IMG/VR virus record: IMGVR_UViG_2579778842_000004
Direction: 5' to 3' (one strand)
DNA length: 16,811 nt
DNA from: a virus
Lineage: Duplodnaviria; Heunggongvirae; Uroviricota; Caudoviricetes
Part shown: positions 802 through 16,811 of the stretch, one piece after another
Numbering within the stretch: position 1 is the first letter of the stretch
How the letters are laid out: each line of letters opens with the position of its first letter
Program-made: the position numbers and the translations under genes
The notes under the pieces: generated by a model
Databases searched by the model: none
Told to the model about the DNA's origin: nothing
Seen by the model: only the letters and a program-made list of their open reading frames with translations

Positions 802-896
802 TGCGTCACCTTTTACGCTGCGCCTTATTTTGTGATTGAGCCAGGCGGTAAGGCTTCCCGCTTTTCGCCCCGTCGAGCTAGGCTCAATCTATTCAG

Positions 897-2318: not shown

Positions 2319-2427
2319 GCTGCTTGGTGATTTTTACTGATGGCTTATTCGATATTCTGAATCTGTTTGTAGAGTATTGGCTTCAATGCCGCATTGTAGC
2401 TGGTTTCTTCCTAATGCGATTTTTGAT

Positions 2428-2447
2428 TATGTACACCCTTATGTACA
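2428..2447. promoter_or_regulatory. Second pair of ATGTACAC repeats (ttatgtacacccttatgtacacgg)
   Basis: Near-identical to the 2215-2238 pair, about 210 bp away on the other side of the terminator. Confidence 0.3.
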
Positions 2448-2740
2448 CGGTTTTTTCGGGTGCTTTGGTCAGAAGCCATTGCCTACATCCCTCACGATCG
2501 AGGTGTGTAACCATGTTCAGGCTTGTTGTCCTGCGCGCGCGTATTGCTCGTGAAATTGCTGTACCCAATAGTGATGTCCGAAAAAACCTCCGTTCTCACA
2601 TGAAACAGCCATATGCAACTGGTAACTGAACAGACTGGTAGACCGTTCGTTCAGTAAATACCTGATATTTTCGCCAACGAGAAATTGCGTTGGCTGGCAG
2701 GGTGCAAATTTGCACGATGGACTAACCCATTGATTCTTTC

Positions 2741-2765
2741 GAAAACCCCCATTGGGGGAAAAGCC
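2741..2765 (-). terminator. Weak terminator-like hairpin downstream of the PerC-like gene
   Basis: On the minus strand CCCCC-AAU-GGGGG followed by UUUUC; lies about 115 nt past the stop at 2875. Adjacent perfect palindrome gtgcaaatttgcac at 2702-2715. Confidence 0.3.
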
Positions 2766-2874
2766 TAACTCATTGGTTTTCCCACAATCCTCAATTTGAG
2801 GAATGTACCTAAAACCATTTTTATAGCTCCGATCCCTTCAAAGTGAGGGGTAATTTGCCAAAACAGAGAGAGCA

Positions 2875-3162
2875 TTACTGTCTCTGGCAATCTTTATCGC
2901 GATAACGCCTGAAGTACCCTCTCGCTTCCTCATCCATACCAAGAGCCGAATGAGTCCGCTTAACTGCCTGTCTTAAATCTCCGAATCTGTCTGTAGTTGC
3001 TGGTGGGCGTGCCGCCTTACGGATACATTCAGAGCGTCTGTTTGCTGCATGTTCACGTTCTTTATCGCCATCTGCCAGCATCATGACTTCTGCCCATCGT
3101 GCGGCAGCTCTCCGGTATAGCCCTTTTGACTCCAGCTCTTCAGCTTTCCTGTCCCTTATCAT
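2875..3162 (-). CDS. Small basic regulator, PerC/ANR-family-like (tentative)
   Basis: 95 aa, MIRDRKAEELESKGLYRRAAARWAEVMM... matches my recollection of the N-terminal pattern of PerC-type small activators; GAGAGG 6 nt upstream of ATG. Family assignment is from memory, not a search. Confidence 0.55.
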   Translation of the reverse strand: MIRDRKAEELESKGLYRRAAARWAEVMMLADGDKEREHAANRRSECIRKAARPPATTDRFGDLRQAVKRTHSALGMDEEARGYFRRYRDKDCQRQ

Positions 3163-3198
3163 TTCTGCCTCTCAGATTATATAGATAAGCAAAAAGGT

Positions 3199-3319
3199 GT
3201 TGGTTCAGTTGGTTCAGTTGGTTCAATTTGTAAAGATCGTTGTTTTTATTGTGTTTTTTCTGAAATATTGAACCAACATCAACTCATTTTGAACCAACAC
3301 AGCCCAGCTCTGAACCAAC
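3199..3319. repeat. Iteron cluster A: 3 tandem GTTGGTTCA (3199-3225) plus 3 inverted TGAACCAAC at 3269, 3290, 3311 (21-bp phasing)
   Basis: Read directly. The whole block is an imperfect reverse complement of cluster B (9351-9461), including the shared spacer atttgtaaaga. Confidence 0.65.
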
Positions 3320-3373
3320 AACACAGCGATAGCTTTGTGATTGGCCCGTTATTTTCTGGCTGATATTTGAGCG

Positions 3374-3404
3374 TATAACAGTGTTATACAGTGGTATACT
3401 GTAT
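3374..3404. promoter_or_regulatory. Two adjacent palindromes upstream of the RHH gene (candidate operators)
   Basis: TATAACA-g-TGTTATA (3374-3388) and ATACAGT-ggtat-ACTGTAT (3386-3404), overlapping a TATACT -10-like hexamer about 12 nt before the ATG. Confidence 0.4.
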
Positions 3405-3421
3405 GGATATTACTCACTGAT

Positions 3422-3877
3422 ATGGTCTTTGCAATGAGCAAATCTAATCTGGTCGCGTTCCGCATCCCATCTGAATTGCAGGATGAGTTTAATCGGTCTG
3501 TTCTCGCTTCTGGAGGGGATAAAACCTCCTGGCTTGTTGATGCGATTCGCATGAAGCTGGGACAGCCGGAAAAGTCTATTGATTCACGAATGCTTGGGCT
3601 GGTGGAGCGCATGGAAAAAGCTGCTGCGTCGCTTATTGCCGGAAAGCCGAACATCCCACCAAAGCCATATAACGAAACGGCAGTTATAAAGATCATTGCC
3701 GATACCATCCGACAGGGATTTGATAATGGGCGTGTGATAGCTGAACGGATCAATGAAGCAGGCTATCAAACAAAAGCTGGTAAAGCGTGGGATAAAGATA
3801 TTTACAGCGCGTGGAAGCGTCAGGGAAGCAATGCTGAAAAGTTAAAAGCGGTGATTGATTGTAAGGTCAGCGTATAA
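3422..3877 (+). CDS. Ribbon-helix-helix (Arc/MetJ/CopG-like) DNA-binding protein with C-terminal extension
   Basis: N-terminus SNLVAFRIPSELQDEFNRSVLASGGDKTSWLVDAIRMKL fits the beta-strand/helix/helix RHH pattern. No clear SD; alternative start at ATG 3434. Confidence 0.6.
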   Translation: MVFAMSKSNLVAFRIPSELQDEFNRSVLASGGDKTSWLVDAIRMKLGQPEKSIDSRMLGLVERMEKAAASLIAGKPNIPPKPYNETAVIKIIADTIRQGFDNGRVIAERINEAGYQTKAGKAWDKDIYSAWKRQGSNAEKLKAVIDCKVSV

Positions 3878-3956
3878 ACATGAGTGCCCATTGGAAAGCT
3901 GCTTGGGCCAATACCTTTATACACCAGCAGGTGGTGACGATAGGTGAGGATCAGGA

Positions 3957-4178
3957 ATGAAAGGCAGAACGCCACACATTGAACATCAAGCCAACCACTT
4001 CTCGGATGTTCGCAATGAGATGATTGCCATTCGCGGTGATATGCACGGCTTGGAGCGTCGAATTATTGATAAGATTGATGAAAATAGAGATAAGGCCAGT
4101 GAAAATCAAAAGTGGATCATCGGCCTGTTGATTTTATCAATGCTTATCCCGCTACTTATCGCATTGGTCACAAAATGA
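3957..4178 (+). CDS. Small tail-anchored membrane protein (coiled-coil N-terminus, single C-terminal TM)
   Basis: 73 aa; C-terminal WIIGLLILSMLIPLLIALVTK is one hydrophobic helix. Topology resembles XhlA-like or holin-like small proteins, but no family confirmed. Confidence 0.5.
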   Translation: MKGRTPHIEHQANHFSDVRNEMIAIRGDMHGLERRIIDKIDENRDKASENQKWIIGLLILSMLIPLLIALVTK

Positions 4179-4699
4179 ATATCCAATGTGTATGCTGTCG
4201 ATGCTACGCGCACGTACTTGTCGCAAAATATCAGACAAAAGCCAGATTCAGAACGTCGTGATAACCACCAGCACAACAGAGAGGTCATGTAACGCGATTT
4301 ATCACACCAGATACATGTGATTGGTGTACCCGCATAAAACATCGTCATAGCGCGTCCTGTGCGCATATACGCCGATAATCAACACATCACCACCACTCTG
4401 TCTCATGTAGAGAACACTTTTATGGTATCCCCCGCCATCGTGCGCGTACTAGTCGGACGCAGTTGCAAAACTTTTTGCAACTGATACCCCTCGCGCGCGT
4501 ACTTGTCTCGAAATTGGTGTTTTGCTGTGGCAGTGATATCAGAAAAATCTTCCTGTTTCACATAAAGCGGATATGCGCGTACTGTAACGACCCCATCAAC
4601 GGGGGCGGATTTGAAATCCCGACCCAAGCTATGTACCAAATGCCATGTCTTGGATATATGATGATTGCCATTCTAAACAACGCTAAAGGGAGGGTTGGT

Positions 4700-5314
4700 G
4701 TGAGCAGAAAAGATACTAAAGAATTGCTAACTATCTGCATGGTGTACTTTTCAATTTATTTTTGTGCATACATGATAGTCCCAGATGAGTTTGAACATGG
4801 CAGTATTATTTATTCCATAACATTCTATTTTTTAGAGCTAACACCAATTTTGGCTATCCTTTTGGCAATACATATTTATTTTTCCTTAAAAAAAGAATCG
4901 ACTAATTGGGAGAAGGTATGGAGAGACAGAGGATTTCTAACATCACCTAAAGATGATGCATATGAGAGTGATTTTTCAGACTTTATAACAAACTACTACT
5001 CCAGCGAACGATTCAAAAATAGACTGTCTGATGTTTGGGAAACAGCAATGTATTCTATAGGGATTATATTATTGATACTTACTGGTATTGCTCAATATGT
5101 TTTTAACATTGACTTATCATTAAATCCTGAAAATTTAATATCGCCATTGATTTTTGGTGAGATATTGATCTTCTCATTCGGAATTTTCTTGAGTGTTGTT
5201 CTCTGCTCATTATGCAAGCTACTGACTAACAGGTATCCGGGTGAAGCAAGGAGAGCAAGAAAGGCAAATCCATATTATCTTTTATTTCCTAATGGAGACA
5301 GCAGAGATATCTAA
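4700..5314 (+). CDS. AT-rich integral membrane protein, about 4 TM helices, unknown function
   Basis: GTG at 4700 preceded by AAAGGGAGGG (5-nt spacer). Composition drops sharply in GC at about 4690. Four hydrophobic segments (LLTICMVYFSIYFCAYMIV, IIYSITFYFLELTPILAILLAIHIYF, AMYSIGIILLILTGIAQYVF, LISPLIFGEILIFSFGIFLSVVLCSLC). The track's longer start (4463) would include repeat-rich DNA. Confidence 0.6.
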   Translation: MSRKDTKELLTICMVYFSIYFCAYMIVPDEFEHGSIIYSITFYFLELTPILAILLAIHIYFSLKKESTNWEKVWRDRGFLTSPKDDAYESDFSDFITNYYSSERFKNRLSDVWETAMYSIGIILLILTGIAQYVFNIDLSLNPENLISPLIFGEILIFSFGIFLSVVLCSLCKLLTNRYPGEARRARKANPYYLLFPNGDSRDI

Positions 5315-5332
5315 GCCATCCATGGCCATCTG

Positions 5333-7348
5333 TTATTGAGCTTCCTTTTGCGATGCTTGTGCTGCTGTGGTCAGTGATTGTGTGACCGTACTGATCGCTC
5401 TGTCATATGCTGTGCTACCTTTTGGCGTATTTGCCAGACGTAACAAGGCATTTCGTATAACAGGGCTTTCGTATGCCTTCGCTGCTCCGCCTACGGCACC
5501 AGCAGCAGGAACAACAAACGCAGCCGTTTTTAGCATCCCCGCTAATACTGCTGCGTTTATGATGCCACCACCAACTAACAATCCATAAAGCTGCTGACCA
5601 TTTAAGTTTTGAACGTTCGCTTTTGCCGCGTGTCTTGTATCGTTGAGGTATTTAATAACGCCGTCCAGTTCCTTTCCATGTACGCCTTTAAAGAAAGTTG
5701 CTGATTGCTTCCTGTTCCGGTGTAACGCATTAATAAACTTCTCAACACTGATATTTCCAGACGGATCAGTCGCCTTATCTACAGCATTCTGAACTATGGC
5801 TGCTCGTGCGTTTTGCCTACCATTGTCATCCAGAAGCCTGTAAAGCTGAGAACGTTCTGATGGGCTTTGGCTAAAAACGAGTTTTGTTACATCCTCAGGC
5901 GTGGCCTTGCCGCTGGCTATTGCCTTTTGAACGCGCGTTCTTCCCATCATGTCATTGAATTTAGACCATGAGCGATCAACCCTTGCCATATTAATGGCTT
6001 CGTCTGCTCCAAGATTTTTGGCTACGGCTTTTTTCATATCCGCCGTATATGCCTTGTAGATAATATCGCTGGCTTTCTGGAGCGTATCTTTATCAACAGT
6101 GTCAGATGACGCCATAAATCGCTTTCGAAGATCGGTTCTGTTTTCCCTCGCCAGACGCAGGTCATTTGGTCCGCTGGTGATATCGTCTTTAAATTGCTGC
6201 AAGACTTTTACCGCGGCTCTATCCTGAGATTTGCCCGGGCGGCTTAACACGGCAATCTGATTGTCGATAGCTTTTACCGTGTTTGAGAGATCGACAGGGG
6301 TATCCCCCATAGCGTCAATTATGCGGTTATATCGCTTTCCTGCTGCCTCAATGAATTTTTGTTGCCCTTTAGTCGCAGATTCATAAAGCTGTTTATCAGA
6401 AATGCCACCCAGACCATCGCTAAATGTTCTGACTAAATTTTCTCGTGCTTGTTGTTGATTCAGCCGATTCTTACCGGTTCCAAAAAAAGGAACTCTTTCG
6501 CCTAATGTCTGAGCCTGACTCTGCATAAAGGTTTTATCTTTCAGCATGTCACTGGTCATTAACGGTAGGTTTCTTTCCGATGCAAAATCAACAGCGGCTT
6601 TCGCTTCCGGTGCCATATCACCGCGAACGGCCCTCGAAACGGCACTCACTGTATTCTCCAGACCCTTACCAATGCCGCCAATGCCAGCAGAGATTACCGT
6701 TTGTAACGGATCAATATCTTCTCCACCAGCAAGGCTGGTGGCTCCCTGTAGTGCTAAATCTGTAGCTGCTGATTTCCCTATGGCCCCCAGCACCGTTCCG
6801 GCCCTGCCCGCTGGTGTAAACGCCAGCGCATTAGCCAGAAACGATGCCACGTCTTGCGGCGATAAACCCGGCTTGTTCAGAGCATAATCACCGGATGGTA
6901 GGGAAACGATAGTGTTACCCTTCTCATCCTGCCTTAATTTCGCTCCCATGCTCTGAAGAATCTTTTCCTGAGATGCGTCAGAGCCGAAAAGTTGAGACCA
7001 TCGAGCTTTTAGAGCATCCATGCTGAGTGAGGTTAACTCTGGGGCAAGGTCGACATTTTGCAGTCTCTCCATCTCTGGAGTCATTCGGCTTTCGCCTGTT
7101 ATAGCATCGCGCATCGCAGCCCCAAGGCTGGCTCCCTGTTCTGCTGAACGCTCAAGCCCCTCTCTTTGCTGAGTAGCTAACTTTGCATACCCTGACGCAA
7201 GAGAGTTGTCTGCTGGCGATTGCTGAACACCTTGTTGTGTTGGTGCTGACTGACCAGCAAAATACTCATCAATGGCGGTGCCAATATCTTCGGTGCTCGT
7301 ACCATCAGGGAAGGTAAATGTCTTACCGTTTGCAGTTACTTTCATCAT
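5333..7348 (-). CDS. Large (671 aa) Ala/Gln/Gly-rich, largely helical-looking protein with C-terminal hydrophobic segment; function unknown
   Basis: Start overlaps the upstream stop (ATGA at 7348-7345). C-terminal [40 protein letters not shown] is membrane-like. No enzymatic motif recognised. Confidence 0.8.
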
Positions 7349-8736
7349 TCCACCGTAAATTGAATGCCTGATTTTGACGTGTAGCTACCTCCTGCTGATT
7401 GCTGAGTAGCTGGCTGTTGCCTTGATGATTTCTTCCCGCCATTACCGACATTAACGTTATATTGCTGGTTGTAATTGTCGGTATATTGCTGAATGTCGCG
7501 CATTGATTGTTGTAGTGCTTCAGGGCTTGAGAAATCAGGCTTTGGCATACCTTGAAAATACCTATTGGCCTCTGCTTCGGTGTTGATGCCAGATGCCCCC
7601 ATATCTCGGGCTGCCGCAATCCCCTGATTTTGCATTTTGCCCAGGATTCGCTGTGCAGCGTTGTATAGCCTCCTCTCCTCAGCACCAGATGCCCGGCTAC
7701 GAATATCTGCACCAAGAGCAAAAGAACCTGAAGAACCAGTAATACCTGTCATGAAGCCAATATCGTCAATTGATGCGCCAGAAATTGCCTCAAGATCTTT
7801 CTTCATTTCGTAATTCTGCGCATTAGCTGCCGACGTGGCCGGAGCAGCAATAGAGCCAGCTGGAACGCGAACTATGTTCCCCTCATTGTCTATACCTTCG
7901 TAGAACGCGTTAGCACCAGCACCATGAAGTTTCCCGCCTACGGTTACAGTTCTTCCGTCTGCTAGTTGAACTGTGCGCTCATTATTCCCAACCGCCCCTT
8001 TCATTGATGTTCTCTGCATCGCTAAATCCTGACCGCGCATCGTGATGTTCTGTCCTCGTGCTGTTAGCGCCTCGCCAGCCTGATTGCTGCGGATTGTCTC
8101 TGCCAACTTGTCACGCTCAATATCCCGACCTTCCATTTGATCTTTGATATCGAAGTACTTCTCATGGCCGAGAGAAAACAGTGCCAGATTACCTGCGAAG
8201 TGCTGGAAGCCCTGCGGGTCATTAACCTGCATTTCAGCAATAGTTTCTGGAGGGATACCTAAACGACGCATCTCCTTTTCGTTATCCATCATGAACCTGC
8301 CAAATGCGCCCGGACCAAGCGACGAAGCTACCTGTGCTTTAAGCGCCAGATTGCCAAAATCATCCCGCTGGGCGTCATCGACATACCCCATGCCTTTACG
8401 GACTTCCTCAAACTCTTCTGGGAATGCTGTAATAAGATTACGCATCTTCTCCCTGTCGCCGGACGCATAAGCATCTGCATAACCTTTCTGGAATGCCGCT
8501 TTACGCTCCTGCTGTTGCTGCTGCTTATAAATATCAGCAACTCCAGCCAGACCACGAAGACCTGTCAGAGCAACGTTATTTGCACCTGATCGAGCCAGTT
8601 CATTGTTTTCGCGGATCAGACCAAGCGTTGCGTTAATGTCGCTTGCCTTTGGCGCATTCTCATTTTGCGTACCGATGCCAGCCAGAAAACCACCAGAATT
8701 AATACCCTGTTGCCACGTAGCCATTGATTTACCCAC
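7345..8736 (-). CDS. Large (about 460 aa) low-complexity Gly/Ala/Gln/Asn-rich protein; function unknown
   Basis: Long ORF, translationally coupled to the 671-aa gene. Track start is GTG 8736; ATG at 8724 ([12 protein letters not shown]...) is an alternative. Confidence 0.78.
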
Positions 8737-8902
8737 GTCCAGTTAAAGTGTAAGTCAGCGCCTTATCCATTAATCCCCGAGCAATTTCGTGGATCGTTGG
8801 CGCAACTCCTACCTCTGATTTTTTACGCTGCTCCTCCTGAATTTTCTTTATCGCTTCCATTTGTTTCTCACTTATCAATACTGGCTTTACTGAAATAGCC
8901 AT
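8729..8902 (-). CDS. Possible small Lys/Glu-rich ORF (57 aa) heading the large-protein operon
   Basis: ATG at 8902 with AAGGGGG 4 nt upstream (cagttctAAGGGGGcgttATG); stop at 8729-8731, 4 nt before ATG 8724. Not in the ORF track, presumably because it is short. Confidence 0.3.
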
Positions 8903-8997
8903 AACGCCCCCTTAGAACTGTATAAAACAACAGTTATTATAATTTCATAAAACGCAACATTCATCATTGTGATTGCAAAATATGAAACAAATAGCAC

Positions 8998-9030
8998 AAA
9001 AAAATGCCACCGCTCATTAGCTGGTGGCAT
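8998..9030 (-). terminator. Rho-independent terminator closing the primase operon
   Basis: On the minus strand: stem AUGCCACC / GGUGGCAU (9004-9011 / 9023-9030) followed by U7 (complement of A-run 8998-9004). Confidence 0.5.
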
Positions 9031-9350
9031 CGTTCTGTATGTCAGGTTTTGACAGGTTTTTTATGGACTCTAAAAACTATATTTATGGTGTCGCATTACT
9101 CTTCACGGCAGGCGCTTTCCAGTTCTGCCCTTGCTTCTGGCTCCATTGGTAATTTGATTCGAAATCAGCTATGCGGATGGTTTGCTGAACAGGCATAACA
9201 ACTTCTCAGAGGCTGTTTTTTTGAACTACGAAAATTTCGTAGTGCTCACTTTCAAAAACGTCACGCCCTTGTACACAGGATTTTACGAAAGTCTCGTAAA
9301 GCACTCTCTGATGCCAGCCAGATGTTGTGCTCATCAATTCAGTCACGTTG

Positions 9351-9461
9351 TGTTGGTTCAAAATGCCGTGTTGTTGGTTCAGTGTTGGTTCAATAAAAAG
9401 AATAAAATCCTTATAAAACAATACTCTTTACAAATTGAACCAACTGAACCAACTGAACCAA
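9351..9461. repeat. Iteron cluster B: 3 GTTGGTTCA (9351, 9372, 9383) plus 3 tandem TGAACCAAC (9435-9461)
   Basis: Read directly; mirror image of cluster A, immediately downstream of the primase stop (9488). Confidence 0.65.
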
Positions 9462-9487
9462 CACCTTTTCTACGCACATGAAGAAGC

Positions 9488-12250
9488 TCATTCTTCAGAT
9501 GAGTTATAATCTCCTGGCTGGTAATTGAGTACATAAACGTTTATTTGTCGTCCCTGAATACGTGGTGATTTTCTTTGGTATCCACGACCGCTGTTTGGTG
9601 GGGTTAGCATCCCGGCTTTTTTCAACACTTCAGCAAACTGTTTTGCGTTGAAACCACATGCGATCTCCTTTTCAAATGTGGCCGGGAATGTGTAGAAAAT
9701 CATTGGGCTTTCGTCATGTTCTCCACGCTGACGGTATCCGGCTAAATCTTTGATGGGCAAATCTGCCGGGCTGTATGGAAATGGTGCAAAACGGCTAAGC
9801 CCATAGGCATTAAGAAATGCCTCCGTTTGTTCAATAATCTGCTGATGCTCTTTGTTACCTGTGCCGAACTCGCGCAACCATGCGTTATAGCTGTGCTGTA
9901 TCGCATCACGGCATGTCTGAGCATCCCAGCCTGTTACAACCTCGCCTAACAACAATGCGGCCTCCAGAATGGCAAATCGCGCGGCTACACGGTGAACCTG
10001 CTCACCATAATCGGATGGGATCAGGCTTCTCCATCTGCTTTCGCAATCACGAACAGTTTTAATAGCCTGTTGCTGGTGGTCTGCCAGCCATTTAATCCAC
10101 TCACGCCCGGCTGCGCCATGGTGATGCTGGTAAGCGTCTTTCAGTGCGTCTGCGTGCTGTTTTCCGTTCTGGTAATCGTGAAAGCGTACTGCTTTACTCA
10201 ACGGAATATTCAGCAGTCGCACCAGTTGCCCGGCTTTGGTTTTTCGCCCGGAAGTAGCGATAAATGTTTCTAAATCCATTTCTCCGGTGCTGATTGCCAC
10301 TGTGCGCCAGCGTTTTAGATCCCGGTTTCCACCATCTTTAGCGCCTTGCAGTTTCCCTACACCGTTAAATAACGCATAGGCAGACTGTGAAACACTGACA
10401 GGATCAGCGCCCTGACCAACTTCATCAAGCGGCATTAGTCCGTCATTGTGGGCGGCAGCTTCATTTGCCAGCCCCAGCGCGGTTCCGTACCACGTCAGCC
10501 GCAGTAAATCAGGGTTGCCGTATAAGCTGCTCGCCACGTTTGCCGTGGTGGTCTTACCTGCGCTCGACTGCTCATAGAAATGAATGCCGAACCCGTCAGC
10601 GCCCACCAGCCCAATCAATGGCGCTGCCAGTGCTGCGCCGATCCCGGTCATCATTGAATAGTTACCAAAGGCCAGACGCGCCACGTTATCACGCCAGCTT
10701 TTCGCGCTCCCTGAGACGGTATATCCGGCTGCGGCTGAGCTTCTCCCGCTGAACAGCACAGGATTTTCAGGTGTTCCGATGATTTCCCCATCAGGCATGA
10801 TGTACGCTCCGCATTGCCAGCCAGTGGCATGAGCAACACGCCACAATTCACGAGAGCCACTGCGTTGTAGCCAGTCTGCCAGTATTGCTCTGAGGCTGCT
10901 TTTGGTCGTGACATTTACCCCACCAGCTTTCAGGGTGCGCCAGCCTTCACGCTCGCCAATATCAGCCAGCGGGATAGCCGCTGTTGTCGGTATGCCTGCA
11001 CCGAATGCCAGCCATGAGATAATAAGATACTGATCTTTGTCGTCGCGTCCCGTGCCGATAACCTCCAACGGGGAACATAACCAGCTTTCAGCGTTGACGA
11101 TCTCCCCGCTTTCCTTGTCCACCTTCGGCGTTACCCAGAAAACGCCATCTTTGCGGCTCTCAATGTGGGGTTTTAGTGGATCTTTCTCTGGATGGTCAGT
11201 TTTACCGCCCTCAATGGCTTGCAATCGCGGTTTCACGGCTTCCCCTTGAATCTGGTACATCGAATCGTTAAACGCAGCCGTAGCGACTTCCAGCCCGTTT
11301 TGCTGGCGGTAGTCGTCCCAGTCGGCTTTGTAGTCTGTCGGCGGCAGTGCCACCCAGCCAGCCACGGATAAGGCGGCTTTCTCTGCGGCATCTTTGCCCG
11401 TGTTCGCCTGTTCGTCCTGCTGGTGGTCGTTATCTGCGGCAATGATAATCTGCGTGGCTGGATATATCCGGCGCATCACTTCGGCAACGGGTAGCAGGTT
11501 GCCCGCATCAATGGCGCACACTGTCAGCGCGTCAGGGCGCATCAGGTGGACTGATAAAGCGGTTGCCAGCCCCTCGGCAATTAAAACGCTCTGCGGCGAT
11601 TCTGGCGCGTTTACGGCGTGATATGCCCCGCGCTTTGCTGAACCTGTCAGGAGTCGCTTCTCTCCCTGCGGTGTAATGGTTTGCGCTGCTGCCACTGCGC
11701 CGGATTCGTCCACCAGCTCCAGCAATAACGAACCATCCGGCATAACCGGATAGTTAAACCCGGTCAGCCCTTTTGATTGCAGGTAATCAGATTCGCCCTG
11801 TGTGGCACTCTGGCGCATTCCGGCATACAGATGGGCAAACGTAGCCCTTCGCTGCTCTGCGTCCTCTGCTGCCTGTTTCTGGCGCTCCTGCTCACGCTGC
11901 TGGCGGTCAGCTTCCAGTTGCTCCCTTCTATGGCTCGCTGCCACCGGGTCGGATTGCGCTGCCCGGTAATCAATACCCAGAACATCAGCGACAAGAAGCG
12001 CCGCCTCTGTTGTGTCGCAGTTATTTACGCGTTTAATTAAATCCAGCCCATCACCAGCGCCGCACTGATTACAGATGAAGCTACCGCGCCCGTTGTCATC
12101 GAACCGGAATCGATCTTTGCCCCCACATGCAGGGCAGGGAGCATGACGGCGCGGAGAGTCAGGGACATTTATGTTCAGGCAGCCCAGCACATGAGGCCAG
12201 TTGTTTTCAGACGCACTGATAACCTGACGGATAAGATCAATGTTTCGCAT
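9488..12250 (-). CDS. Primase-helicase, P4 alpha-like (N-terminal zinc ribbon, TOPRIM, C-terminal P-loop NTPase)
   Basis: 920 aa. Zinc ribbon CPACGG...FICNQCG; TOPRIM-like VLIAEGLATALS ... IIIAADNDHQ; Walker-A-like FYEQSSAGKTTTANV. GGGGG 5 nt upstream of ATG. Confidence 0.9.
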   Translation of the reverse strand: MRNIDLIRQVISASENNWPHVLGCLNINVPDSPRRHAPCPACGGKDRFRFDDNGRGSFICNQCGAGDGLDLIKRVNNCDTTEAALLVADVLGIDYRAAQSDPVAASHRREQLEADRQQREQERQKQAAEDAEQRRATFAHLYAGMRQSATQGESDYLQSKGLTGFNYPVMPDGSLLLELVDESGAVAAAQTITPQGEKRLLTGSAKRGAYHAVNAPESPQSVLIAEGLATALSVHLMRPDALTVCAIDAGNLLPVAEVMRRIYPATQIIIAADNDHQQDEQANTGKDAAEKAALSVAGWVALPPTDYKADWDDYRQQNGLEVATAAFNDSMYQIQGEAVKPRLQAIEGGKTDHPEKDPLKPHIESRKDGVFWVTPKVDKESGEIVNAESWLCSPLEVIGTGRDDKDQYLIISWLAFGAGIPTTAAIPLADIGEREGWRTLKAGGVNVTTKSSLRAILADWLQRSGSRELWRVAHATGWQCGAYIMPDGEIIGTPENPVLFSGRSSAAAGYTVSGSAKSWRDNVARLAFGNYSMMTGIGAALAAPLIGLVGADGFGIHFYEQSSAGKTTTANVASSLYGNPDLLRLTWYGTALGLANEAAAHNDGLMPLDEVGQGADPVSVSQSAYALFNGVGKLQGAKDGGNRDLKRWRTVAISTGEMDLETFIATSGRKTKAGQLVRLLNIPLSKAVRFHDYQNGKQHADALKDAYQHHHGAAGREWIKWLADHQQQAIKTVRDCESRWRSLIPSDYGEQVHRVAARFAILEAALLLGEVVTGWDAQTCRDAIQHSYNAWLREFGTGNKEHQQIIEQTEAFLNAYGLSRFAPFPYSPADLPIKDLAGYRQRGEHDESPMIFYTFPATFEKEIACGFNAKQFAEVLKKAGMLTPPNSGRGYQRKSPRIQGRQINVYVLNYQPGDYNSSEE

Positions 12251-12262
12251 TCTGGCCCCCGT

Positions 12263-12865
12263 TTAGTGCGTCACTGGTGCTTCTGGGATGCCGTTTTCGT
12301 TTAGTTCGGCAATAAAGCTGTTGTGAAGATCGGCAAGCACTTCTCGCCCAAACGAAGTGAGTGTTCCCTGTTCGACATCGAACATGTTGCTGTAAAAAAT
12401 GATGGCATTCTTTGTTCCGACATCAACACCATATTTCTCGATCATTGCGCCCTCAATGTTGTTTGCCATAGCGAGGCGCTCTGCTACTGGATACAGCGGC
12501 ATGGCGACGATGCCATTGGAATAAACAGAAACCACGGAATGATTGCCACTGTCATCAATAATGCTGACGGTGCCGTTTTCCTTTCTCATTTCATTGATGA
12601 ATGCTGTTGCTATCAGCCAGCGCCACATAATCACGTGATGCTGTGATGTGTAATCGAAATATCCCTGGTTGCCGCCACTGGCAATAGCGAGATGTATAAA
12701 CATGCCTTCATCTGGTTTATCGTCATAATCCCCGGCATCCAGACGATTTACGGCATCAATATATGAGACGGTCTCAACGCGTTCTGTCATGCCATCGTTG
12801 CTGCGGTACATGATGTTTACGCCGTCAGGCGTTGCTTCTGCATGGAAAGTTAAGAAATTATTCAT
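12263..12865 (-). CDS. Hypothetical protein (200 aa)
   Basis: Start moved to ATG 12865 (MNNFLTFHAEATPDG...), which overlaps the stop of the upstream 73-aa gene. The track start 12970 would overlap that gene by 35 codons. Confidence 0.6.
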   Translation of the reverse strand: MNNFLTFHAEATPDGVNIMYRSNDGMTERVETVSYIDAVNRLDAGDYDDKPDEGMFIHLAIASGGNQGYFDYTSQHHVIMWRWLIATAFINEMRKENGTVSIIDDSGNHSVVSVYSNGIVAMPLYPVAERLAMANNIEGAMIEKYGVDVGTKNAIIFYSNMFDVEQGTLTSFGREVLADLHNSFIAELNENGIPEAPVTH

Positions 12866-13079
12866 GTTTCGCCTCGCCTGAATGATTCTGTAACTCATAT
12901 TTGCCCAACAATTCGTCTGCTTCCTGAATAGCTTCTGGTACGCCATTGAGCAGTGACATAACCGCGCCAATCATTAACTTGTCTCTGTTGCTGGGGCTGG
13001 CCCCTTCAAGCCAGAACCCTAAAACAGTCTGAACCTGTTCGATACGACATTGCGCTTCAATGAGCTGGATGTTGGTCAT
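12858..13079 (-). CDS. Small acidic hypothetical protein (73 aa)
   Basis: Member of a chain of stop/start-overlapping small ORFs on the minus strand. Confidence 0.5.
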   Translation of the reverse strand: MTNIQLIEAQCRIEQVQTVLGFWLEGASPSNRDKLMIGAVMSLLNGVPEAIQEADELLGKYELQNHSGEAKHE

Positions 13080-13339
13080 TTCGCACTCTCCGCATCGATT
13101 AAACTGATATCTATCAGAGAGGTAACTTTTTGTAGCCAGCTAGTGATTACTGTCGCCTGTTCCCCTCCCACCGATGGAAGAATCTCATTCATCACATGAA
13201 CCAGACCTGTGCGCGCTCTGGTAAGCCGTTCAGTCGTGCGATCTGCAAGAGTGAATGTGTCTGGATATGGCTCTTCACGGCTCAGCAATGATTCAATTTC
13301 CAGCTCACACGGATGACGATAAATTAAGTTGATATTCAT
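13076..13339 (-). CDS. Small acidic hypothetical protein (87 aa)
   Basis: ATGA overlap with neighbours on both sides. Confidence 0.5.
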   Translation of the reverse strand: MNINLIYRHPCELEIESLLSREEPYPDTFTLADRTTERLTRARTGLVHVMNEILPSVGGEQATVITSWLQKVTSLIDISLIDAESAK

Positions 13340-13530
13340 TTTTCACCCCCAAGAATTACCAGCTCTGCACGGGCATCGTTAACCAAAGATGAGCACGCTT
13401 TAATCGCATCCACGACATCAGTAGCGTCCATTTCTTCAGCCGAAAGACTGACAGCAACCAGGACAGCCGCTGCTTGCTCGATTAATTGAAGTGCGGACGT
13501 AAGGCGAGGGGTATTAATTGAGTTATTCAT
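13336..13530 (-). CDS. Small acidic hypothetical protein (64 aa)
   Basis: ATGA-type overlap with neighbours. Confidence 0.5.
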   Translation of the reverse strand: MNNSINTPRLTSALQLIEQAAAVLVAVSLSAEEMDATDVVDAIKACSSLVNDARAELVILGGEK

Positions 13531-13741
13531 TGGTTTCCCCCGTTTTTACTGGCATTTCGCCACCTTCCAGCAGGAAATGAACGTCACGAACGGCGAGATC
13601 CAATATCGCGAGTAACGCCTTCAGTCTTTCGTCTCGTGAGGGAGAGTTGCTCACCAGAATGTCGTTAATCACTTCTGTCAGTGTGATGATCTGGCTTGTG
13701 CGTTCGAGGGGATCCATATGCACATCGTAGGTTTTAATCAT
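13523..13741 (-). CDS. Small acidic hypothetical protein (72 aa)
   Basis: ATG 13741 with GGAGGTG 6 nt upstream; overlaps the stop of the 13734-13928 ORF (CATGATTAA). In frame with the long 13523-14551 open frame. Confidence 0.5.
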   Translation of the reverse strand: MIKTYDVHMDPLERTSQIITLTEVINDILVSNSPSRDERLKALLAILDLAVRDVHFLLEGGEMPVKTGETNE

Positions 13742-14551
13742 GTGCCACCTCCATGCGGATACGACCAGCAAAAAAGCAGACGTGATCGCGCACCAGAGAA
13801 CGGCGAGCATCGCGTTCAGACTCGGCAGCAATATGATGAATTTTGGCGGTAATTGTCGGGCAATCGCGGCGAACTGCGGCGATAATCCAGATAAATTGCG
13901 GTTTTTGGGTAGGGGTAGTAGCCAGCATGTGGCAGCCTCCTTGATTGATGGTTTATAGCCACCGCCGGAGGTCCTAAGCTCGCTGGCGGTGGACTGTACA
14001 GGGTTAGGACTACTGGCAATCAAGGAAACCAGCCTGACCGAAGTCAGCCCCATACAGCCCACCATTGATAAGGTGTGCGTGTGCGCCGATACAAAAAAAG
14101 ACGCTGGCGCGTCATGTATCGCCTCGATTGCCTGCGGGGTCCTAATCCCGGCACCCGTTTTATGAGGTGCCTTATAACCATAAACCGTGTTGCCGCATAA
14201 CGGCAAGCTCTTTTTTATGGACTCCGAAAACTCACTATTGGAAGCACCAGATGCACAATACATCGCGCTCATTTCGTTAACGTCACGCACGTGGACGAAT
14301 GTTTTTGTGGAGTCACTACACGAGCAGAACAGGTGATCTACGACCAGAAATTCTCTGGCGCAGCCGCTGACCTTCTCAACGCTAACACCATCGACCGTAA
14401 TTTCTGACATAGTTAAGGCATCCGCTCCTACCACCAGCAAATGATAAACTTTGCTTGTATCTGCTGTATTAATGCCTGACTTTGCTGTCATATTGCTGGA
14501 TTTTGGCGACATACCAGCCAGTGAAAATGTCTTCTTCTGGACGGTTAGCAT
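13523..14551 (-). CDS. Long uninterrupted open frame (342 codons); N-terminal about 150 codons look coding, middle section coincides with RNA structures; possibly composite or frameshifted
   Basis: ATG 14551 has GGAGG 7 nt upstream and overlaps the upstream stop (ATGCTAA). No in-frame stop until 13523; a T7 run sits at 14099-14093. Alternative annotation is the two small ORFs listed separately. Confidence 0.3.
13734..13928 (-). CDS. Small basic hypothetical protein (64 aa)
   Basis: ATG 13928 preceded by textbook SD AAGGAGG (13942-13936, 7-nt spacer). The SD lies in the 3' arm of a predicted RNA stem. Confidence 0.45.
   Translation of the reverse strand: MLATTPTQKPQFIWIIAAVRRDCPTITAKIHHIAAESERDARRSLVRDHVCFFAGRIRMEVAHD
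13936..14113 (-). promoter_or_regulatory. Structured RNA leader/attenuator-like region (minus-strand transcript)
   Basis: 5' to 3' on the minus strand: hairpin GACGC-GCCA-GCGUC then U7 (14113-14093); CUGAC-UUCG-GUCAG tetraloop hairpin (14047-14034); 9-bp long-range stem CCUUGAUUG (14025-14017) pairing CAAUCAAGG (13947-13939), which contains the SD of the 13928 ORF and encloses an 8-bp hairpin CCACCGCC/GGCGGUGG (13992-13959). Confidence 0.4.
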
Positions 14552-14727
14552 TTGTTAACCTCCGCGAACTCCTTCATGAAACGCGCCAGCGGTTGTACGC
14601 ATGGCGATTGATACCCGTCGCGATAGAACGTCACTCGGTTGTGAGACACGCTTTCGACAGTAACGAGTGCTCCGTGGGCATCTTTGTAGCGTTTTTGAGG
14701 TTGTGGTGTTCCTGTAGGCTTAAACAT
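14545..14727 (-). CDS. Small hypothetical protein (60 aa)
   Basis: ATG 14727 with GGAGG 6 nt upstream, 4 nt after the AntA-like stop (MFKPTGTPQPQKRYKDAHGALVTVESV...). The track start 14814 would overlap the upstream gene. Confidence 0.5.
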   Translation of the reverse strand: MFKPTGTPQPQKRYKDAHGALVTVESVSHNRVTFYRDGYQSPCVQPLARFMKEFAEVNKC

Positions 14728-15553
14728 GGACCGCCTCCAGACGCTTAGCGAGCCAGCGTTGCGACAGGCGGGTGAGTTCTCCTTTGCGCTGCTCATATTC
14801 CATGCCCATATCAATTAACGTGATATTGGTGCTTTCGAGATATGAGAGGTGCTCAAGTTGTTCTGCGTTCATATGGTCGCGAGGTTCGCCAGAATAGCCA
14901 TTTATCCGCGCCCACTGCTTAGCAGTTAGCCCACCAAGAACGATACGAGAAATCATATTGCTCTCGTTTGTGTAGTGGTGTTGCTGCGTCGTTTTCCCCT
15001 GCTCGGCACGGGCCATATTCAGCGCATCGCACATTGGCTTAAAGTTGTTTGCGGCACTGATACGGGCTTTTAGCTGGCGACGATAGCGGGCGGCGATTTC
15101 AGGAACGCTACGCTGTAATTCTTCCTCGCACTGGATGAAATAACGGCGGATAGCGCGCCCCTGATCATTGCGTTCGATCATTGCCAGTTCTTTCGCCATT
15201 CCGACACTTAACAGATAGTCTTTGCCGGGTCTGCCAGAGTGCTTAATCTTGCTGTAAGCCGTGCCATTCGGGCTTTTCCCCAAATTTGGGGAAATTGTTT
15301 TATGGACTGAGTAATCGTGCCCAATGGTGAAGTCATATTCAGAGATGCGATCAGTGATCCATGTAGAGAAGTCTTTTCCCACGCCCAACGCTTTGTGTAA
15401 CGCTTTTGCGCTAACAATATTGGTTTCACGCCCACCGATATGACCAGGAATAACCGGGACAATTGCGGCAAATTCATTACCGTTAATTGTGCCCAGAGAG
15501 GCGTTCAGATGAGGGGCGGCCTCAGAAATTAATCTGCTTTTTTCGATGTTCAT
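14720..15553 (-). CDS. Phage antirepressor-like protein (AntA-type N-terminal domain)
   Basis: 277 aa; N-terminal segment ...NIVSAKALHKALGVGKDFSTWITDRISEYDFTIGHDY... matches the AntA/Bro-type signature as I recall it; GGAGA 7 nt upstream. Confidence 0.7.
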   Translation of the reverse strand: MNIEKSRLISEAAPHLNASLGTINGNEFAAIVPVIPGHIGGRETNIVSAKALHKALGVGKDFSTWITDRISEYDFTIGHDYSVHKTISPNLGKSPNGTAYSKIKHSGRPGKDYLLSVGMAKELAMIERNDQGRAIRRYFIQCEEELQRSVPEIAARYRRQLKARISAANNFKPMCDALNMARAEQGKTTQQHHYTNESNMISRIVLGGLTAKQWARINGYSGEPRDHMNAEQLEHLSYLESTNITLIDMGMEYEQRKGELTRLSQRWLAKRLEAVHV

Positions 15554-15565
15554 TTTCAGTCTCCG

Positions 15566-15997
15566 TTAGGCGGCGTTAAACGCGTTCGGGTAGAGTTTCA
15601 GAATGTCGGCAATTTCCTGCTGAGAAAGTCCGTTGTGATCATTTATGTTCGCAAGATGGTTAACATGAGTGATCACTTTCAGAACATCACCACGGCAGGA
15701 GAAACGGTAGCGAAGGTGTGTTCCGATACCATCAGGATTCTTTTCGTCGATACGCTCCAGAGTGATTCCAAGCTGGCGTTCTAACTCTGTTGCATAGTTA
15801 CGACCAGAAGACAGACGGCAGTAGCGAAGAATGTCATTTTCTGTCCATCCCTCTATACCAGTACGCAGCATATAGACTCTGGCACGATGCTTTTTCGGTG
15901 TGCGCTTTGGTTCTTGAAGGGATTTTGTAAGGGGCGTAACATCAGATACGCGAATATCTGAATTAGCCGCCTGTAATGGGCGGTTTTTCTTTTCCAT
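15566..15997 (-). CDS. Hypothetical protein (143 aa), translationally coupled to the AlpA-like gene
   Basis: ATG overlaps the AlpA-like stop (TGATG); AAGGTGG 5 nt upstream. Confidence 0.6.
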   Translation of the reverse strand: MEKKNRPLQAANSDIRVSDVTPLTKSLQEPKRTPKKHRARVYMLRTGIEGWTENDILRYCRLSSGRNYATELERQLGITLERIDEKNPDGIGTHLRYRFSCRGDVLKVITHVNHLANINDHNGLSQQEIADILKLYPNAFNAA

Positions 15998-16200
15998 CAG
16001 GCCACCTTCCCGCGGCGTTCTGCCAGCCAGTTGTGAATCTCAACCGCATCAAACGCAGTTATTTTTTCTCCCAGCTTTACCGGACGTGGTAGTGAACCGT
16101 TTCTTACTTTACGGTCGATGGTGGATACACTAACGCCCAGCAATTCAGCCAGGCGGAAGCGTCTGATATAGCCTTTTGTAGGAATAGTGTCGGTGTTCAT
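15997..16200 (-). CDS. alpA: AlpA-family / excisionase-type helix-turn-helix regulator
   Basis: 67 aa; RFRLAELLGVSVSTIDRKVRNGSLPRPVKLGEKITAFDAVEIHNWL fits the AlpA/Xis HTH pattern; first gene of the long minus-strand operon. Confidence 0.75.
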   Translation of the reverse strand: MNTDTIPTKGYIRRFRLAELLGVSVSTIDRKVRNGSLPRPVKLGEKITAFDAVEIHNWLAERRGKVA

Positions 16201-16204
16201 GCTT

Positions 16205-16259
16205 CCCGTAACCTCTTAGCGATAGTTGTTGCTTCGTTACGGGAGGAAGTATCTGTACA
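16205..16259 (-). promoter_or_regulatory. Leader of the AlpA-like gene: 8-bp inverted repeat around the SD plus one TGTACA motif
   Basis: CCCGTAAC (16205-16212) and GTTACGGG (16236-16243) separated by 23 nt; AAGAGG lies at the loop/stem junction; tgtaca at 16254-16259. Confidence 0.35.
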
Positions 16260-16270
16260 TATATGAACAA

Positions 16271-16298
16271 TAAAAAGGCACAGTAATGATACTGTGCC
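16271..16298 (-). terminator. Rho-independent terminator downstream of gene X
   Basis: Minus strand: stem GGCACAGU / ACUGUGCC (16298-16291 / 16284-16277), 6-nt loop, then U5 (complement of A-run 16272-16276); 17 nt after the stop at 16315. Confidence 0.55.
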
Positions 16299-16314
16299 TG
16301 AATAGTTAGCTACT

Positions 16315-16811
16315 CTACCCCTTACCGTTGGCGGCAGCACGTAAGTGTCTCAAAATCACATCTTCATTTGTGATTGCTAACGGTGGAATTTCGTCTTTAT
16401 GAGCCACTATGCAATCCCGCCACTTCTCAGGGCTTATTTCTTTCTTTTTGCCACGGCATTCATCAGGATACTTTGACAAAAGATATATTGCTGATTTGAA
16501 AAGTTTTTCCCTGTTTTCAGCATGTCTCTCGGCATTATGGTTGCTATTTTTTATTTCAGGTATTAGTTCCTGTTCTACCGCCATTTCGTATCGTTTTTTG
16601 CTCTTAGCTGCGTCAAAACTTCCATTAACCTTTGCGTCGTGAAGATATTCTAAATCAGCCTTTGTTATATAAATGTTTTTATCTGACAGGCTACTCAGGT
16701 GAATCTGGGAACTTTGCATTTTGAATTTATATAGATCACAATCAAATGTTGCTTCAAGTCGCACATATGGCTCTCCACATTCTTGTGAATGATAATGTCG
16801 TGTTGTACTAC
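16315..16811 (-). CDS. Hypothetical AT-rich protein ('gene X'), 3' part; 5' end runs off the window end
   Basis: Frame is open from the window end to the stop at 16315. The last 54 codons (LSKYPDECRGKKKEISPEKWRDCIVAHKDEIPPLAITNEDVILRHLRAAANGKG) are unique; the rest duplicates 1-332 in the same frame. Confidence 0.6.
   Translation of the reverse strand, partial: STTRHYHSQECGEPYVRLEATFDCDLYKFKMQSSQIHLSSLSDKNIYITKADLEYLHDAKVNGSFDAAKSKKRYEMAVEQELIPEIKNSNHNAERHAENREKLFKSAIYLLSKYPDECRGKKKEISPEKWRDCIVAHKDEIPPLAITNEDVILRHLRAAANGKG
16480..16811. repeat. Terminal direct repeat, right copy (matches 1-332)
   Basis: See left copy; offset between copies is 16479 bp. Confidence 0.95.

Follow-up and report, generated by a model that had tools for sequence, protein, structure and literature searches.

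What is a long non-coding stretch kept for in a compact mobile element? The question is raised by a spacer of 521 bp (positions 4179-4699) that runs from a 73-aa ORF to the GTG start of a membrane-protein gene in the virus record IMGVR_UViG_2579778842_000004, the whole 16,811 nucleotides of which we call here the window. A preliminary description of this DNA drew attention to a repeated motif, GCGCGTACT, and to a palindrome in this spacer, and proposed that the spacer could hold a complex promoter/operator or a small RNA controlling the membrane protein. The repeat and the palindrome are real. The function suggested by our analysis is another one: the repeats match a segment of the small-terminase gene (terS) of the helper phage, which points to a packaging signal and not to an operator or a small RNA for the membrane protein.

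An island of the EcCIMP1 type

The window is an EcCIMP1-type PICI, a satellite of P22-like phages. Its sequence is 100% identical to DNA of E. coli UMNK88 and of three ETEC genomes from pigs, though solely as a circular permutation. Window positions 2345-16811 and 1-2365 each correspond to one of the halves of an island of 16.5 kb that lies between dinD and yicC, and they meet at a 21-bp att overlap (2345-2365), where attP is found. This permutation and the 332-bp terminal overlap of the window, in which bases 1-332 are the same as 16480-16811, are compatible with an excised and circularised island. Its genes code for an integrase, PerC, an AlpA-type regulator, a TOPRIM-DUF927 primase of 920 aa and proteins homologous to the ejection proteins gp20 and gp16 of P22. 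No capsid or terminase gene and no Rpp-like or TerS-like protein was recognised in it by annotation and by Pfam and PHROG searches. An integrase, AlpA, a primase/helicase, PerC and att repeats, with neither capsid nor terminase, are the features by which an EcCIMP1-type PICI is recognised, and the int-alpA RNA motif is found as well (822-888, minus strand), just downstream of the 3′ end of the integrase gene.

EcCIMP1 itself, from E. coli MP1 (Pick, Stadel & Raivio 2025, ISME J; PMC11773190), has the same integrase, AlpA, TOPRIM-DUF927 primase, PerC and P22-type ejection-protein homologues. It also carries the spacer module studied here, with all three of its long repeat units. The island of the window differs from it in chromosomal site (dinD/yicC) and in cargo genes. 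EcCIMP1 is induced and transduced specifically by the P22-like phage vB_EcoP_Kapi1 (Kapi1 below), at a very low rate, and is devoid of a terminase gene (PMC11773190). Its authors did not identify the packaging mechanism, which the paper leaves open, and the module and its terS-like repeats are not described there (PMC11773190).

Other features of the island touch on its biology. The gp16-like ejection-protein gene (5333-8736, minus strand) is ~95% identical at the DNA level to that of a complete P22-like prophage (APEC E18006; L065 6018-9482), in which the gp20-like gene also adjoins the gp16-like gene; this identity indicates that the satellite exchanges virion-protein genes with its helpers. 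Iterons (GTTGGTTCA) occur in two clusters, with three copies in direct and three in inverted orientation around an AT-rich core. One cluster (3197-3323) is next to PerC, and the other (9346-9464) lies a short way downstream of the gene for the TOPRIM-DUF927 primase. Across 88 bp the clusters are 85% alike, in opposite orientations, an arrangement that recalls P4 ori/crr. Rfam matches at gathering score to C4 antisense RNA and isrK, at 13982-14069 and 14094-14170 on the minus strand, fall inside an ORF annotated as ‘ash family protein’, and this 1029-bp ‘ash’ ORF may partly be a regulatory RNA locus. The 73-aa protein to the left of the spacer showed no similarity to the XhlA-like protein of Kapi1.

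The conserved module and its repeat units

The spacer is an autonomous, self-contained cis-acting module. It is present in ~545 of 5426 complete E. coli genomes at 95-99% identity, with a left edge that is always 4198 and a right edge at 4703/4704, at 4625 or at 4614/4615; the next shared block starts at 5314/5316. Both flanks vary. To the left stand Abi, ImmA/IrrE or small HTH proteins or, in the window, ORFs of 73 and 151 aa; to the right stand various cargo genes of the + strand, or genes of the opposite orientation. In other islands, the Abi and ImmA/IrrE genes are on the opposite side of the module from the cargo slot. The module alignment comprises 47 copies, 31 of them unique, drawn from genomes, metagenomes and IMG/VR, and all the comparative evidence comes from Escherichia, at an identity of at least 86%. 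When the gp20-like protein was compared with genome contigs in search of more distant relatives, six P22-like prophages were returned together with one satellite contig that ends before the module. Module DNA gave no match among phages, and its lone ‘plasmid’ match was a 4.9-Mb record, a chromosome.

Table 1. Features of the module and its surroundings, in window coordinates
Feature	Position	Strand	Basis or remark
Third long terS-like unit, between attP and the PerC gene	2523-2599	-	profile searches
Long terS-like unit 1 (motif 4210-4218)	4196-4273	-	nhmmer, cmsearch
Conserved non-coding module (‘spacer’)	4198-4703 (506 bp)	no strand	~545 E. coli genomes, variable flanks
Short unit 2 (motif 4442-4450), most variable copy	4438-4455	-	E 0.06
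Palindrome CAGTTGCAAAA-CT-TTTTGCAACTG	4460-4483	no strand	perfect, 11-bp arms
Long terS-like unit 3 (motif 4495-4503), two common forms	4483-4561	-	nhmmer, cmsearch
Short unit 4 (motif 4575-4583), nearly invariant	4572-4590	-	module alignment; inside sub-block 4548-4703
Small palindrome GGATTTGAAATCC	4607-4619	no strand	alternative right ends 4614/4615 and 4625 in or just after it
RBS GGGAGGG (4688-4694) and GTG start (4700-4702) of the cargo gene	4688-4702	+	module right edge
Variable cargo gene, 204-aa membrane protein	4700-5314	+	weak SieA-like match

The motif GCGCGTACT occurs in three exact + strand copies, in units 2, 3 and 4 (Table 1), and the fourth reported copy, in unit 1, has one mismatch (GCACGTACT). 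To these we add another one-mismatch copy, GCGCGTCCT, at 4350-4358. When one mismatch is allowed, the whole window contains 8 matches against 2.85 expected, a count reached by 1 of 200 shuffles, and five of the eight are gathered on one strand inside 375 bp. Across module versions the copies behave differently. The one at 4210 is an exact GCGCGCGTACTTGTC in 26 of the 27 other versions, its G>A change being private to the window, and this copy 1 reads CGCGCGCGTACTTGTC everywhere bar the window. At 4442 the exact motif is a minority form, most versions having GTGCGTACTGG or GTGCATACTGG.

The 9-mer is a mere core of longer units, one of which, a long one, lies outside the spacer in which the repeat had been reported. 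Each island has three long units of ~78 nt and two short ones, all in one orientation, the sense strand being the minus strand of the window. The long units were defined by nhmmer and cmsearch unit models; the unit outside the module was first met through a chance match in another island. In EcCIMP1 (L067) the long units are at 2745-2817, 4499-4576 and 4790-4867, and the first of these, the counterpart of the attP-side unit, is just downstream of the 3′ end of the PerC gene. The long units are each cut off just after TACGCG(CGCG).

The inverted repeat GTTGCAAAA-CT-TTTTGCAAC (4462-4481), noted for its 9-bp arms, is indeed perfect, and the arms grow to 11 bp (4460-4470 and 4473-4483). The palindrome is unique in the window, where 0.03 would be expected by chance, and no second copy of it was found in the island nor any in the genome of the helper Kapi1. 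Its arms are conserved among module versions, with a variable central dinucleotide (CT, TT or AA). A natural deletion of 53 bp (~4444-4496), which affects motif copies 2-3 and removes the palindrome, is recurrent in several independent metagenome/run assemblies (L032, L053, L062-L064). This deletion arose through recombination between copies 2 and 3, and the palindrome is dispensable in such natural variants. It could nevertheless be a protein-binding site; bending of the DNA or binding of an accessory protein between two units is a possible role.

Variation in the module is lowest at 4284-4400 and 4509-4575, two stretches more conserved than the motif copies. Within the first of them lies an imperfect palindrome, ACACCAGATACATGTGATTGGTGT (4304-4327). 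A poly-C tract at 4429-4433 has 5 to 7 C among near-identical copies, and some versions have substitutions nearby; this tract could be a slippage-prone site.

Similarity to the small-terminase gene and its alleles

Without a terminase, a satellite whose helper packages by headful depends on a pac signal, and for this reason the Kapi1 genome was searched for the motif. In P22-like phages, the pac site is found inside terS (PMC8022706, PMC4669245, PMC9611059). In the 39.4-kb Kapi1 genome, the motif 13-mer has one match with one mismatch, and this match is inside terS; the 12-mer GACAAGTACGCG is unique in Kapi1. The reverse complement of GCGCGTACT, AGTACGCGC, is the core of the unit, and the unit reproduces the terS segment TTTCGNGACNAGTACGCG, which corresponds to codons ~58-64, with similarity running upstream to about codon 46. 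The Kapi1 TerS is a protein of the Sf6/HK620 type (Pfam Sf6_terminase).

The specificity of this match was apparent with a model made from six satellite units only. Its one match across 180 kb of DNA from P22-like phages and prophages was Kapi1 terS at 18874-18892, on the sense strand (E 0.006 by calibrated cmsearch), and the nhmmer result was identical. Four further terS alleles, three carried by E. coli prophages (identity of 83-88% in the first 347 nt of the gene) and one from Salmonella phage MS2 LVA (71%), were matched at the same position of the gene, with E between 1.5e-5 and 4e-3, and the alignment to the better-scoring ones spans 40-48 nt. The units match terS nt ~140-192 in these five alleles. 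The similarity is short, 18-24 nt of it being solid and ~48 nt arguable.

The terS alleles compared (L069-L072, L006 18704-19132 and L068) are mosaic. Their 5′ ~200 nt are variable (71-88% identical alleles), and the E. coli alleles hardly differ in the 3′ part. The variable 5′ part is the one encoding the DNA-binding domain, and the satellite unit corresponds to its end. The Sf6 pac site is reportedly located within the DNA-binding-domain part of gene 1 and is said to move with this part during horizontal exchange.

Different units resemble different alleles. The core of unit 1, ATTTTGCGACAAGTACG(C/T)GCGCG, matches Kapi1 terS ATTTTCGCGACAAGTACGCG, the majority form of unit 2, GACCAGTA(C/T)GCAC, resembles a CAG-type allele, and the attP-side unit of the window (GAGCAATACGCG) resembles the CAA-type allele of MS2 LVA. 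Unit 3 exists in two common forms separated by two linked base changes, an A-form, TTTCGAGACAAGTACGCG, present in the window, and a B-form, TTTCGTGACCAGTACGCG, the exact 65-mer of which is found in 207 of 534 E. coli records. The 2015C-4944 and O26 11368 prophages have a terS allele that agrees with the B-form at 18 of 18 positions, and the A-form is one base away from the Kapi1 and 55989 alleles. At least four strains harbor both terS and the module. Strain 99_0849, with a CAG-type terS (the 2015C-4944/O26 11368 allele), has the B-form; MP1 and 2013C-4081, with an AAG-type terS of the Kapi1 type, and CDF6, also AAG-type, have the A-form. The direction is as predicted, but these strains are few and clonally confounded.

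Packaging and the competing readings

The conservation of the module between sharp edges, the family of repeats with its specific resemblance to terS and the polymorphism matching terS alleles are all directly established. Taken together, they suggest that the units may form an array of pac-site mimics recruiting the helper terminase, a reading that we favor over the alternatives below but advance as a tentative one. During helper growth, the TerS ring of the helper would bind the unit array on replicated satellite concatemers and recruit TerL, and headful packaging would then run toward lower window coordinates. An island of 16.5-20 kb would fill a ~40-kb head as 2-2.5 copies. Having cores of the AAG, CAG and CAA types, one island could exploit helpers that differ in their terS/pac alleles. 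More speculative, and rather doubtful at present, is the broader proposal that the EcCIMP1-family satellites carry a pac-mimic array derived from helper terS, whose varied copies would serve helpers with different TerS/pac alleles, the A- and B-forms of unit 3 being a case of allele tracking.

Our caution comes first from the link to packaging, since we infer that TerS binds the units and that packaging is initiated there, and likewise any function of the palindrome. The similarity is short as well, and the Kapi1 match alone has only E 0.006. Other parts of the module evolve more slowly than the motif copies, unit 2 varies considerably, and the very low transduction of EcCIMP1 by Kapi1 sits oddly with an efficient pac array. 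Moreover, Sf6-type terS is found in 229 of the 5426 E. coli genomes (in three of them on plasmids), against ~545 for the module.

The repeats and the palindrome might instead bind PerC, an AlpA-family protein, a helper repressor or a host factor and control the membrane or defence gene in the cargo slot, which would make the spacer a promoter/operator, as first proposed. The right end of the spacer speaks for this idea: the module ends exactly at the RBS and initiation codon of the cargo gene on the + strand. The sequence GGAGGTTGGTGTGA recurs in a P22-like prophage, at the equivalent gene, which is convergent with gp16 there, and this identity, together with the RBS and GTG at the module edge, indicates a slot exchanged with codon precision. 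In other elements the cargo is swapped exactly from start codon to stop codon (slot 4704-5313) for unrelated genes. In the window the slot holds a low-GC gene (0.31-0.36) whose product is SieA-like at PHROG E 2e-4. The sub-block 4548-4703 travels with different + strand cargo genes, and one metagenomic variant keeps this sub-block only, with another cargo gene. The right-hand ~80-155 bp of the module thus carry the RBS and start codon for the downstream gene, and probably its promoter too.

The rest of the spacer is harder to fit into this scheme. It is true that the arms of the palindrome are conserved around a variable centre, an operator-like pattern, and that PerC is encoded in all four elements whose annotation was read. 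Yet the left ~350 bp, with units 1-3 and the palindrome, are kept where the module stops at 4614/4625 and the neighbour is on the other strand, and the units persist in elements that have another gene downstream. Near attP, 1.6 kb off, there is one more unit, and the palindrome is absent from the natural deletion variants and from the helper genome. A scan of the module gave no consensus promoter or terminator, and between 3300 and 5400 the sigma-70 consensus was met only twice, inside the cargo gene, although weak or activator-dependent promoters might escape such a scan. The terS match and the allele-matching variant would be left unexplained. We consider a regulatory role of the repeats unlikely.

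A second alternative is that the units are functionless relics, decayed terS fragments or scars of recombination with helpers that hitch-hike in a recombining region. The units do read in frame like pieces of TerS (AKHQFRDKYARE against AKHEDFRDKYAKA, and in unit 3 ...TATAKHQFRDKYARE... against TerS ...RWLAKHEDFRDKYAKA...), the ORFs are broken, and the near-identity of the gp16 gene with that of a P22-like prophage implies ongoing exchange with helpers. Mere debris would hardly be expected, however, to yield three separate copies in one orientation, each ending at the same sequence, to stay conserved in hundreds of genomes while the neighbours turn over, or to occur in two common forms mirroring living terS alleles. 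No other part of terS or of terL was found in the island, no protein-level homology to TerS is detectable beyond the in-frame piece, and profile and PDB searches see no TerS-like protein. Relics are in our opinion a quite unlikely explanation.

The array could also serve as a decoy, binding helper TerS in order to interfere with helper packaging or to sense late gene expression. The sequence evidence for this is identical to that for pac mimics, and the very inefficient transfer of EcCIMP1 would suit it, as would the reported effects of EcCIMP1 on helper biology and superinfection (PMC11773190). According to the published abstract, on the other hand, EcCIMP1 aids helper replication and does not block it (PMC11773190). 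A replicating concatemer with TerS bound to it would in any case be expected to be packaged, so that the decoy overlaps with the packaging reading; as a separate function we judge it improbable.

The small RNA of the preliminary description, or more generally a structured leader RNA or a small spacer-encoded protein, has fared worst and is very improbable. A gap of 520 bp is long for E. coli, and hypothetical ORFs of 74-210 aa have been called there in several genome annotations. No Rfam family is matched, however, at gathering or relaxed thresholds, and the folding energy is no better than that of shuffled sequences on either strand (z -0.05 and -0.42). The ORFs differ in length and frame through changes of poly-C length and through deletions, and have no family, PDB or phage matches. 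The same holds for a gene on the minus strand or a pseudogene of terS: the annotation of strain D2 has an ORF of 126 aa there, but frames differ between genomes. The minus-strand ORFs found nothing in Pfam, PHROGs, phage tblastn and three PDB searches; against 5.8 billion proteins they found only ORF calls of variable length on the same DNA, and the apparent ‘diverged’ protein relatives are frameshift or deletion variants. Since these ORFs are broken differently and match no family, selection appears to act on the DNA itself, and what is kept is a piece of DNA and not a gene.

Two other candidates were discarded. For a cos site, a cosN could be proposed at GGGGGCGGATTTGAAATCCCGACCC (4601-4625) with the repeats as cosB, but its G-run (4601-4605) varies, GGGGGCGGATTTGAAATCCCGACCC is a breakpoint between module types, and the helper family packages by headful. 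A replication origin is not indicated either: the iterons GTTGGTTCA lie in their two clusters elsewhere in the island, none being in the module, the GC content of which is ~0.44-0.47.

If the repeats are indeed pac mimics, they would explain how a terminase-less island rides P22-like phages, and would provide a simple rule for which helpers move which islands. About one in ten complete E. coli genomes contains an island of the EcCIMP1 type, with PerC and exchangeable genes for defence or exclusion. The units would also be a compact DNA tag making plasmids or other cargo transducible by phages of the HK620/Sf6 type. The comparison with terS narrows the likely recognition sequence of TerS in Sf6-type phages, which is hard to study in vitro; if the reading is true, comparative genomics would pin down the nucleotides of the long-elusive pac site of this group.

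Satellites that do not possess a complete terminase of their own, such as P4 with P2 or SaPIbov5, carry the packaging signal of their helper. Copying of a helper signal by a satellite is thus already known, and we have not found an array of terS-derived pac mimics described in satellites of P22-like phages. The E. coli PICI EcCICFT073, which relies on helpers of the lambda/80 type and on Rpp, likewise carries the helper packaging signal and is packaged by the helper terminase, according to its published report (PMC9026076). The cos sites of P4, EcCICFT073 and SaPIbov5 differ from the units described here in that they are precisely cut into cohesive ends; here the helper packages by headful, and no conserved cos-like element is seen.

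The closest parallel is with the pac site of the P22-like phages themselves (P22 gene 3; Sf6/HK620 gene 1), a short asymmetric signal placed inside terS and read by TerS when headful packaging begins (PMC8022706, PMC4669245, PMC9611059). A sense-oriented segment of the Sf6-type gene is reproduced by the satellite units, and this correspondence holds in five alleles. The units differ from the phage signal in lying outside terS, in non-coding DNA, in three long and two short copies, and in being extended by CGCGCG. In its multiplicity the array recalls the pac region of SPP1, where several TerS recognition repeats are spread over a few hundred bp and flank the cut site (PMC4669245), although SPP1 is unrelated in sequence and phage group and its array sits in the phage itself.
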